A program made the position numbers and the translations under genes. A model generated the notes under the pieces. The model saw nothing but the letters and a program-made list of their open reading frames with translations, was not told where the DNA came from and did no database searches. A stretch of DNA of 64,000 nt. Source: Promethearchaeota archaeon (GTDB taxonomy: Archaea > Asgardarchaeota > Lokiarchaeia > Sigyniarchaeales > SOKP01). Below are positions 31,415 through 35,315 of the stretch, piece after piece. Location of the stretch: assembly GCA_019058295.1 (NCBI GenBank), contig JAHPZI010000010.1, positions 37,478 through 101,477 of the forward strand. The letters are read 5' to 3'. Each line of letters opens with the position of its first letter. The first letter of the stretch is position 1.

Positions 31415-32071
31415 ATGAAGAATATCGAAAAACTAGAAAAGGAAGCAGAAGAGAATTTAATTATAGCAGAAAATGAGATTAAAGTCGCAAGATTATTTAA
31501 AGAAATGGCTAAATTGGAGTCAAAAAAATCCAAAGCTCGAGAGAAGTTATTACACAGTGAATTAAAAATCGCAAAAACCCGAGAAAACCTCGCAAAGAGA
31601 AAAAAAGAACTCTCAACAAAAAAAAAGAAGTTCAAAGACGAGGGTATTTTAATCTTCTCTGATGATGAATTGCGGGGAGAAAGTAATTATGCGATATTTT
31701 ATGAGAATCTAGCAAAAAAACAATTAGAACTTGCAAGAATCCATGAAAAAATTGATAACTTAGAAAAGAAGATTATCAAAAACAAATATGCAATATCCAA
31801 GATAAGAAGTAGTCTCGCTAAGGAACTTAAGTTATTAACCAAAAAGATCAATAAGTATATTAAAACTGTTGGAACAAATAAATCCCCTGAAAAAATTTCA
31901 AAAGCAGAAACTCAAATACATACTCAGAGAAAACAAGTAGAAATTATTAAGGGGGAATTATTTGAGAAGGAAAATAAACTAAAAATAAAGCACAATATGA
32001 TTGCAGACCTCAATAAAGAATTATCTTTAAATTTAGCAGAACAGGAAAAAATTAGGCATCAAAAATCCTAA
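31415..32071 (+). CDS. Coiled-coil protein, Lys/Glu-rich
   Basis: Heptad-like K/E/L composition throughout. Confidence 0.7.
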   Translation: MKNIEKLEKEAEENLIIAENEIKVARLFKEMAKLESKKSKAREKLLHSELKIAKTRENLAKRKKELSTKKKKFKDEGILIFSDDELRGESNYAIFYENLAKKQLELARIHEKIDNLEKKIIKNKYAISKIRSSLAKELKLLTKKINKYIKTVGTNKSPEKISKAETQIHTQRKQVEIIKGELFEKENKLKIKHNMIADLNKELSLNLAEQEKIRHQKS

Positions 32072-32774: not shown

Positions 32775-33458
32775 ATGTCCTATGTATATATGAAATCTTT
32801 GGAACATAAAGCAGAGAAATATGATAAAGGTATAAAATCATTAACTTTAGGAAGGCTTCCAAAAATAAAGCAAGAAATCGTTGAAAATTATTTAAATGAA
32901 GGGGAAAATTTATTAGATATTGGAATGGGTACAGGAACTTTAGCGATTATTGCTGCTAAAAAGGGAGTAAAAGTTACTGGAATTGATTATTCAGAGAAAA
33001 TGTTAGACGTAGCAAGAAAAAATCTAAAAAATAAGAATTTATCTGAATCAGTAAGGATCATAAAAATGCCTGTTATTGATTTAGATGAAGCATTTCCTAA
33101 TAATTCATTTGATAAAGTTACTGCAACGCTTTCATTTAGTGAACTTTATCAAAAAGAACAAGAATTTTGTTTAAACCAGATTTATCGTATTTTAAAGGAA
33201 AATGGAGAATTTATTATCGTGGATGAAGTGAAACCAAAAAAATTCTGGAAAAAGGTTGCCTACTTTTTTGTAAGAATGCCAATCTCTTTAATAAATTTTA
33301 TTAAAGCTCATATTTCGACTTCTCCATTAACCCATTTCGAACAAAAGTTAAAAAAACATAATTTCATGATATTAGAAGAAAAATTGTATTTATTAGACAC
33401 ATTAAAACTAATTCAGTCAAAGAAAATAAAAGGTGATTTAAACGAGCATAAAAAGTAA
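32775..33458 (+). CDS. Class I SAM-dependent methyltransferase (corrinoid-protein-associated, CpaM-like)
   Basis: LDIGMGTG motif I, GIDYSEKML, ILKENG; N-terminus MKSLE...YDKGI..LT.G; adjacent to the HgcAB-like gene. Confidence 0.8.
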   Translation: MSYVYMKSLEHKAEKYDKGIKSLTLGRLPKIKQEIVENYLNEGENLLDIGMGTGTLAIIAAKKGVKVTGIDYSEKMLDVARKNLKNKNLSESVRIIKMPVIDLDEAFPNNSFDKVTATLSFSELYQKEQEFCLNQIYRILKENGEFIIVDEVKPKKFWKKVAYFFVRMPISLINFIKAHISTSPLTHFEQKLKKHNFMILEEKLYLLDTLKLIQSKKIKGDLNEHKK

Positions 33459-34533
33459 ATTTAAATTGTTTGGAGCATATTTTTTTCGATGGATTGGTTT
33501 TCCTATTGAGCCAGATGTAATTAAAATTGGAAACCCGACAAAAGAAAGCCCTGTTTTATTGACTTGTAACTTTATTCTTACAGTAAAACGAGTTTTAAAG
33601 GAAATAAAAAACCTTGATTGTTATTTGTTAGTAGCACCTTCCAATGGCATTAATGTCTGGTGTGGTGCATGTGGAGATGATTTTCATACAGATCAAGTTA
33701 TTTCTATTATTAAAACGAGCGGAATCAATGAACTTGTTTCCCATAGAACGCTGATATTACCTCAATTGAGTGCTTCTGGACTTGATCCCATACTTATCAA
33801 AAAGAAAGTCGGATGGAACGTAAAATTCGGACCTGTATATGCAAAAGACATTCCCGAGTATATTAATAATAATTTTCAAAAAACAGAAAAACAAAGAATA
33901 ATTAGATTTCCTATTAAAAAACGAGCAGAAATGGCAAATCTCTATTTTTTTAGCATATTTCTGATATTCTCAGTAATATATTGGATTGTTTCATTAATAA
34001 TACAATCATATAATTTAACCCTATATCTAAATAGTACAATTTTGATGTTCATTATAATTTACGGGTCATTGATTATATTGCCAAATATTCCATTTAAAAC
34101 AGGTCGCCCCAAAGTCTTGGTCTATGAAATTGTCCTCATTATAATCATAGTATCATTATTTTTTATAGGTTTCTTAAATCTATTTTATTTAATATGGGAT
34201 ATAGTACTATCGGTTCTTGTAGCATACATTGTAGCAGAAGATTTTCATGGATTAACGCCCATTTATAAAAGTGAGATGGGAGAAAAAAGTTGGAATAAAG
34301 GAAAAGATAAGTTTAAGTTCTTATTTAGTGAATACAAACTCCAACCGTATGGACAAATTGCACTCGAAAGAGAGAAATGTATTGGTTGCAAGGTATGTAT
34401 TGAAATATGTCCCAGAAATTTATATGTTTTTAATGAAACTGATAAAAAGGTTGATTTGAGGACTCCAGAAAAATGTATAAATTGTAATGCATGTGTTAAA
34501 CGCTGTTTAGCTAAATGTTTAATAATTCAATAA
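33442..34533 (+). CDS. HgcAB-like fusion: corrinoid-binding (CdhD/HgcA) domain + TM helices + 2x[4Fe-4S] ferredoxin
   Basis: GNPTKESPVLLTCNF.LT, GINVWCGACG cap helix, LILPQLSA.G, FGPV.AKDIP; four TM helices; CIGCKVCIEICP and CINCNACVKRC. Start is ACG 33442 or TTG 33466. Confidence 0.88.
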   Translation, partial: TSIKSKFKLFGAYFFRWIGFPIEPDVIKIGNPTKESPVLLTCNFILTVKRVLKEIKNLDCYLLVAPSNGINVWCGACGDDFHTDQVISIIKTSGINELVSHRTLILPQLSASGLDPILIKKKVGWNVKFGPVYAKDIPEYINNNFQKTEKQRIIRFPIKKRAEMANLYFFSIFLIFSVIYWIVSLIIQSYNLTLYLNSTILMFIIIYGSLIILPNIPFKTGRPKVLVYEIVLIIIIVSLFFIGFLNLFYLIWDIVLSVLVAYIVAEDFHGLTPIYKSEMGEKSWNKGKDKFKFLFSEYKLQPYGQIALEREKCIGCKVCIEICPRNLYVFNETDKKVDLRTPEKCINCNACVKRCLAKCLIIQ

Positions 34534-34583
34534 AGTGGTTAAAATTAAAAAAAATCTGAAAAAAAAGTTAAGGTTAAGAAGGA

Positions 34584-35315
34584 ATGAATATATTAAGTGA
34601 AATGTTTTCTGGTCTTTTTTCATATACGATTGTTTGGCTCTATCTCTATTTCTCTTTTATTGGGCTATATGCTCTCATTATAATATATCACCAGCGAAAT
34701 CCAGAAAAATATACGTTATTATTCAAAATAATCGACCCAATAGGCGCTATTTTTGGTATTTTTATGGTCTTCGCAGTCCATTTAACCAGACAACCTAGGA
34801 TTTATGGGTCCCTCGGAATGGTTTTGACACCCTCAAATCAGATAATGACTGAACCAGTTGTTAATTATGGCCCATTACCCGGGTTAATTTTAAGTATCAT
34901 CGGTTTTGGAATCCTAATACCAGCGTTTATCTGTTTAGTATTAGCGATAATAAAAATACTTAAGGTAATAAATAGTGAAATGCTTGAGTCTGACGAGATT
35001 TTAGATACCAGTTTTTGGGGGATTGTCCGGAATCCATTATACACCTCTCTATTTTTAGTCTATCTAGGAAATGCACTAATACTCGGTGCTGTCTATAGTA
35101 TAATCTTAGCACCCTTCTTCTATTATACCAACTGGTTAAGTGGATGGGTTGAAACAACATTAAATCTTGAACCCACCTTTGGCAAAGAAAAGGTTGAAGA
35201 ATATAAGAAAAAAGTCCCTCATGCGCTCTTCAATATATATCTGTGGATATTAATGCTTGGATTAACTGTTTATCTTATCATACTAACTTTTTGGGGATAT
35301 GTTCCTTGGTATTAA
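34584..35315 (+). CDS. Membrane methyltransferase, ICMT/PEMT family
   Basis: Multiple TM helices; GIVRNPLY (RHPxY-like); FG...EEYKKKVP. Confidence 0.75.
   Translation: MNILSEMFSGLFSYTIVWLYLYFSFIGLYALIIIYHQRNPEKYTLLFKIIDPIGAIFGIFMVFAVHLTRQPRIYGSLGMVLTPSNQIMTEPVVNYGPLPGLILSIIGFGILIPAFICLVLAIIKILKVINSEMLESDEILDTSFWGIVRNPLYTSLFLVYLGNALILGAVYSIILAPFFYYTNWLSGWVETTLNLEPTFGKEKVEEYKKKVPHALFNIYLWILMLGLTVYLIILTFWGYVPWY

Follow-up and report, generated by a model that had tools for sequence, protein, structure and literature searches.

The 64,000-nucleotide stretch of Promethearchaeota DNA analysed here (the window) carries a gene pair composed of cpaM, which encodes an S-adenosylmethionine (SAM) methyltransferase, and a gene for an HgcAB-like fusion protein. 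The pair is an ordinary copy of the cpaM and hgcAB-like module; NCBIfam already catalogues each of the two families as well as the link between them. By analogy to HgcAB, the core module would move a methyl group from SAM via CpaM to a Co(I)-corrinoid and on to an acceptor that is probably not mercury, a reading to which we give a probability of about 0.6. CpaM is a near-obligatory and sometimes fused neighbor of the HgcAB-like protein. The product of the third gene in the cluster, the membrane protein P0003, falls outside the conserved core, as judged from gene content.

What HgcAB and the fused proteins related to it do natively has long been a question in mercury biogeochemistry. A sequence-only reading of the window had described a three-gene corrinoid methyl-transfer system; what it observed was confirmed, and its interpretation is partly supported. 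The novelty it assumed is lower because the module is already named in NCBIfam, and the window copy adds no new kind of system. Comparative work sharpens two points: CpaM is near-obligatory and often fused, and PEMT/ICMT-like genes recur beside the family.

The CpaM and HgcAB-like gene pair

Three open reading frames (ORFs) lie on the + strand at 32775-33458, 33466-34533 and 34584-35315, with spacings of 7 and 50 bp, in the tightly packed, co-oriented layout reported in the sequence-only reading. The first, cpaM (32775..33458, +), encodes a class I (UbiE-like) enzyme, in agreement with its earlier description as a SAM methyltransferase. It matches NF043040 (corrinoid protein-associated methyltransferase CpaM) with 251.7 bits against a cut-off of 180. 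The SAM motif of the window protein, DIGMGTG, is kept from Asgard archaea to Actinomycetota, and the N-terminal family block MSYVYMK.LE..AE.YD.GI..LTLGR is kept across phyla. A search of the literature for "CpaM" or "HgcAB-like" found nothing relevant; the Haft preprint treats HgcA selenoproteins, not CpaM.

The second gene (33466..34533, +) encodes the HgcAB-like fusion protein, composed of a corrinoid domain, four transmembrane (TM) helices, and a 2x[4Fe-4S] ferredoxin domain. It matches NF043039 (HgcAB-like fusion protein) with 369.3 bits (cut-off, 285) over residues 5-352 of 355, and its homologs bear this same label at NCBI. The scores against canonical HgcA (NF040863, 167.2 bits) and HgcB (NF040864, 43.5 bits) are under the respective cut-offs of 275 and 99. 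The Pfam matches are CdhD at residues 15-131 and Fer4 families at residues 300-350. The AlphaFold2 (AF2) model, built with 69 homologs, has a predicted local distance difference test score (pLDDT) of 89 and a predicted template modeling score of 0.82, and is composed of a Rossmann-like corrinoid domain, a TM block, and the ferredoxin domain. In Foldseek, the top match of this model is HgcA (9a0b_A), which is itself a modeled structure, followed by the large subunits of the corrinoid iron-sulfur protein (CFeSP). A sequence search of the PDB returned no HgcA entry, and the canonical HgcA and HgcB sequences used for comparison were taken from genomes.

The cap helix (33652..33675, +) reads GINVWCGACGDD, with C66 as the putative cobalt ligand and C69 as an extra Cys. 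The corresponding residues are GINVWCAAGK in the canonical HgcA of L130 and L131, and the shorter cap motif is NVWCAAGK in the canonical HgcA of L130, L131, L198, and L204 but NVWCGACG in the window, so the extra Cys and the missing Lys described from the letters are both there. The four TM helices also described are found by hydropathy and in the AF2 model, where they span residues 150-176, 184-207, 213-235, and 239-258; the membrane domain as a whole occupies residues 150-258 (33913..34239, +). The HgcB-like ferredoxin domain (34351..34521, +), assigned by the Fer4 matches and by alignment, has two CxxCxxCxxxC motifs, at C305-C315 and C337-C347, and no CC, which bears out the claim of a fused 2x[4Fe-4S] domain lacking the C-terminal Cys tail. 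What the sequence-only reading missed is C351, a near-invariant Cys 4 residues past the last cluster ligand; the Cys of the HgcB GVGC motif lies 14 residues past the last cluster Cys. In the alignment of NF043039-type proteins, C66 is invariant, and C69 and C351 are at least 90% conserved.

The window pair shares its gene order, domain order, four TM helices, and missing CC tail with the "fused HgcAB" systems catalogued under NF043039 and NF043040 (Gilmour 2018, Lin 2023). No essential difference from the catalogued HgcAB-like/CpaM systems was found. The start of the HgcAB-like gene does deviate. Orthologs use an ATG 8 codons upstream, and the aligned codon in the window is ACG (33442), directly preceded by a TAA at 33439-41. 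The gene therefore begins either at the annotated TTG at 33466, which would make it 8 residues shorter, or at a non-canonical codon, with its start then overlapping the cpaM end.

The cap-helix features are not special to this copy, as a survey of 174 non-identical two-cluster fusion proteins shows. At cap position 8, 168 of them have Gly and none has Lys, and a C-terminal CC is likewise absent from all 174. A second cap Cys is present in 133 of the 174, and 123 have it together with C351. The two extra Cys residues mark the Asgard/Bathyarchaeia/Hadarchaeota branch, to which the sample is weighted, and not the whole family; in other branches, the cap position of the second Cys is A, T, G, S, K, or R. 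The cap CxxC is a clade trait, not a peculiarity of the window copy. The co-occurrence of the second cap Cys and C351 may reflect common descent alone.

The partnership with CpaM was surveyed in 80 loci on contigs from one genome per species, drawn from a wide range of phyla in both Archaea and Bacteria. Of these 80 loci, 76 have a co-oriented CpaM-like gene upstream, in 73 cases with fewer than 260 nt between the matches. Two of the four exceptions are cut by contig ends. In a metagenome set, CpaM was found in 53 of the 61 loci with upstream room, and several of the others are canonical hgcAB. Clustering of all flank ORFs within 3.5 kb on either side revealed no other conserved gene. Fusions also occur: 12 of 77 proteins carry the methyltransferase as an N-terminal part of the HgcAB-like chain. 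One such chain, the 587-residue P0113, scores 254 bits as CpaM and 373 bits as HgcAB-like, both over the cut-offs. Among homologs longer than usual, only class I methyltransferase fusions were seen, with no fusion to a PEMT domain.

Proposed methyl flow through the module and its probable acceptor

Canonical HgcAB offers the closest guide to what the module may do. In the purified proteins, the HgcB clusters reduce the cobalt, which has a Cys thiolate ligand, and Co(I) then receives a methyl group from SAM (PMC11588087). SAM is thus the ultimate methyl source, as proposed for the window module. The window protein resembles HgcA and HgcB in having a corrinoid domain with a Cys-bearing cap helix, a membrane domain, and a 2x[4Fe-4S] partner. 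It differs from them in being one chain instead of two, in having four TM helices instead of approximately five, in its cap (WCGACG instead of WCAAGK), in lacking the HgcB C73 and the CC tail, and in having a dedicated CpaM.

By this analogy, the N-terminal domain would hold the corrinoid, with Cys66 under the cobalt, and the C-terminal 2x[4Fe-4S] domain would reduce it to Co(I). CpaM would bind SAM and methylate Co(I) to CH3-Co(III). The methylated corrinoid would then methylate an acceptor that sits at or within the membrane, the site of the four-helix domain. We propose CpaM as the loader because of the HgcAB analogy and because the link to a SAM enzyme is near-obligatory and sometimes covalent. 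Both redox domains are likely to be on the same side of the membrane, since the fused ferredoxin requires such an arrangement, and the even number of TM helices (four, compared to approximately five in HgcA) would keep the two domains cytoplasmic. A membrane-anchored corrinoid relay had been suggested in the sequence-only reading. A relay with a built-in ferredoxin and a dedicated SAM methyltransferase is supported; the sharing of the relay by both flanking methyltransferases is not supported as stated.

A similar logic is found in CFeSP and its methyltransferase MeTr, where a methyltransferase likewise loads a corrinoid carrier that is reduced through Fe-S chemistry. The corrinoid fold is common to CFeSP (AcsC/CdhE) and the window protein, with a root-mean-square deviation of 2.1-2.4 A over approximately 130 residues (E 7.6e-10). 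CFeSP differs in being soluble and in having Thr or Ala at the position of the cap Cys. Moreover, its loader MeTr is a TIM-barrel enzyme that uses methyl-tetrahydrofolate, whereas the loader proposed for the window is a Rossmann-fold SAM enzyme.

If the acceptor were Hg(II), the module would be a plain fused mercury methylase with the same job as canonical HgcAB. The common domain set, the invariant cap Cys, and the fold, with an HgcA model as the closest structural match, agree with this. The family-specific residues do not: mutagenesis has shown that the cap-helix Lys, HgcB C73, and the CC residues matter for mercury methylation (PMC11588087), and the window protein lacks all three. Its HgcA score, 167 bits, is far from the 275 required. 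M. methylutens and P. furiosus, which both carry fused hgcAB, made no methylmercury (PMC5893877; Lin et al.). In addition, two Desulfobacterales-type genomes encode an HgcAB-like fusion beside a canonical hgcAB that scores 431 bits, at L130 and L135 in G041 and at L131 and L136 in G043. The canonical hgcA genes at L130 and L131 have no methyltransferase gene upstream. Since the two systems coexist in these genomes, they are not redundant. The missing Lys, C73, and CC, the lack of methylmercury production, the coexistence, and the score under the HgcA cut-off together make mercury an unlikely acceptor, and a mercury methylase in the window is very improbable. The non-mercury substrate put forward in the sequence-only reading is probable on these grounds.

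A different use of the corrinoid would be reductive, such as the dehalogenation of halomethanes recently proposed for HgcAB, with CpaM serving another step or only reactivating the cofactor, a task that the SAM domain performs in MetH. In methionine synthase, repair by SAM-dependent reductive remethylation is well established. A 2026 preprint reports CCl4 dechlorination by heterologously produced HgcAB. A partner needed for repair only would hardly be so universally linked, or so often fused, as CpaM is, and no dehalogenase-type genes are conserved nearby. A reductive role is improbable as the function of the module.

Several points weigh against the methyl-transfer reading with CpaM as loader. 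The negative methylmercury results cover just two organisms, with a single set of conditions for each, and the chemistry proposed for the whole fusion family is drawn by analogy. Canonical HgcAB uses SAM in vitro without a helper methyltransferase, and therefore the target of CpaM might be the product or some other substrate, and not the corrinoid. The cap-helix residues 65-68, with a pLDDT under 50, are the sole uncertain part of the AF2 model. Lastly, the predicted complex of CpaM with the HgcAB-like protein gives the pairing weak support. Its interface score (ipSAE) was 0.46, and the best control reached 0.00; contact agreement between runs was at least 57%, with a pLDDT of at least 74 for the partner. 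For comparison, 58 of 80 solved complexes and 2 of 110 mismatched pairs attained that mark.

The third gene and PEMT/ICMT-like neighbors

P0003 (34584..35315, +) is a PEMT/ICMT-superfamily membrane methyltransferase-like protein, assigned from its motifs and approximately 6 hydrophobic helices. Like ICMT, PEMT, and MddA, it is polytopic and has a C-terminal R-x-P-x-Y (RNPLY in the window) and E..L...FG..Y...VP, both conserved in its orthologs. It differs from these enzymes in scoring under the Pfam cut-off (20.5 bits against PF04191, where 25 is needed) and in having no NCBIfam equivalog; orthologs do match PF04191, with P0130 at 27.3 bits. The orthologs number 13, are all from Asgard archaea, and are labeled "methyltransferase family protein" at NCBI. 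An AF2 model of P0003, built with 12 orthologs, had a pLDDT of 49, too poor for fold comparison.

The sequence-only reading made P0003 part of an obligate three-gene relay, in which CpaM would load the corrinoid and the PEMT-like enzyme unload it, or the reverse, with all three proteins needed. The single strand and the 50-bp gap before the third gene, free of any T-run, fit such an operon. Neighborhood conservation, which had been named as a check, was found for CpaM and not for P0003. A tblastn search detected a P0003-like gene in 0 of the 80 diverse loci. Downstream of the hgcAB-like gene in the six nearest orthologous Asgard loci are unrelated genes, for an ABC ATPase, a CbbQ-type AAA protein, an acetyl-CoA hydrolase, an MFS transporter, and two unknowns. 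In all, 86 other loci gave no close relative of P0003. Of seven P0003 orthologs that were looked up, only P0130 is encoded near a cpaM/hgcAB-like pair, at a distance of 1 kb and with an opposite-strand gene between; the other six lie elsewhere in the genome. In G002, the closest relative, P0003 is 95% identical, and the contig ends inside its gene. The window's own genome (G000) has 7 PF04191-type genes. P0003 has somewhat less than an even chance of being a facultative accessory of the module in this genome.

At the level of the superfamily, the picture is different. In a hidden Markov model search, PEMT/ICMT-like genes were the immediate same-strand neighbors of HgcA-family genes in 13 of approximately 166 loci, from at least 7 independent lineages. 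Lineages were counted, not loci, since kin share layouts, and the two locus sets overlap slightly. Pairwise identity between lineages is at most 40%. PF04191 genes make up 0.1-0.23% of the genes in the genomes checked, so that fewer than one adjacency would be expected, and a replicate on metagenome loci confirmed the adjacency.

Three arrangements were seen. The order cpaM, hgcAB-like, PEMT-like occurs in the window and in L043 (Desulfurococcales). The order PEMT-like, cpaM, hgcAB-like occurs in L033 (Hadarchaeota), in L138, and in a bacterial clade (L082, L099, L139, L143, L147, L182). In five loci of this clade (L082, L139, L143, L147, L182), the PEMT-like gene encodes 168-182 residues and overlaps the start of cpaM by 4 nt, which suggests translational coupling in a three-gene operon. 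The HgcA-like ORF of this clade at L082:3453-4220 encodes 255 residues without Fe-S motifs, compared to 382-391 residues in its kin, and may be truncated or frameshifted. In the third arrangement, on metagenome contigs, a MarR gene is followed by canonical hgcA (464-474 bits), hgcB (123 bits), and a PEMT/ICMT-family gene (L198:2271-4889, L204:2172-5064, L209:2301-5062). The best NCBIfam match of the PEMT-family gene beside canonical hgcAB is MddA, the methanethiol S-methyltransferase, with 137 and 58 bits, under the cut-off of 270. None of the PEMT/ICMT-like neighbors, P0003 included, reaches any NCBIfam equivalog cut-off. In the literature searched, no paper was found that links hgcA with MddA or notes PEMT/ICMT-like neighbors.

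The recurrence in at least 7 lineages, the 4-nt overlap in the bacterial clade, and the P0130 locus can be counted for the three-gene relay. On the other side, more than 90% of the loci have no PEMT-like gene, the longer homologs are free of PEMT-domain fusions, and enzymes of the PEMT/ICMT type take their methyl group from SAM, with none known to use a corrinoid. An obligate relay as stated is therefore quite improbable. It is plausible that the PEMT/ICMT-like gene is a facultative accessory that was recruited repeatedly.

A broader version of this idea is that systems throughout the HgcA family, both cpaM/hgcAB-like (upstream or downstream of the pair) and canonical MarR-hgcA-hgcB, have repeatedly and independently recruited PEMT/ICMT/MddA-type enzymes as accessories. 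The native job of these corrinoid proteins would then be a membrane-side methylation by two enzymes, with mercury methylation as a side reaction. This is unlikely as it stands. If true, the native substrate would be hydrophobic or volatile, such as a small thiol or chalcogenide, a metalloid, or a lipid, and P0003 would be the window's version of a recurrent HgcA-family accessory. The recurrence beside both fused and canonical systems may hint at the class of the acceptor and is the one lead worth following.

Asgard relatives and surroundings of the locus

Close homologs of the HgcAB-like protein come from metagenome-assembled genomes that NCBI lists as Promethearchaeota, Thor-, Odin-, and Heimdallarchaeota, in keeping with an Asgard origin of the window. 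In a quick maximum-likelihood tree of the corrinoid domain (143 columns, a long outgroup branch, and support from the Shimodaira-Hasegawa-like approximate likelihood-ratio test, SH-aLRT, only), the window protein falls in an Asgard clade with a support of 99. Lin et al. described the fused clade as sister to HgcA.

Asgard archaea also encode a second paralog (L015-L026; relatives in G004-G036). It is a protein of approximately 550 residues in which a CpaM-like methyltransferase is fused to an HgcA-like corrinoid/TM domain with the cap NVWCAARG, and the next gene encodes a separate HgcB-like ferredoxin of 103-115 residues. An example is the fusion at L018:745-2403 with the HgcB-like gene at L018:2461-2790. 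All parts of this system score under the NCBIfam cut-offs. The second paralog groups with canonical HgcA (SH-aLRT 97) in the quick tree, whose backbone and rooting are weak. Canonical HgcA falls inside CpaM-associated diversity in this tree, which is only a lead.

The window has a G+C content of approximately 30%. The genes around the trio are unrelated housekeeping and transport genes, encoding glutamate dehydrogenase, a GltD-like oxidoreductase, inorganic pyrophosphatase, a DUF308 protein, CorA, MscS-like channels, and GMP synthase. One ORF, at 31415-32071 and upstream of the gene for the pyrophosphatase, has no Pfam match; its 218-residue product is very rich in Lys and Glu and has the look of a coiled coil.

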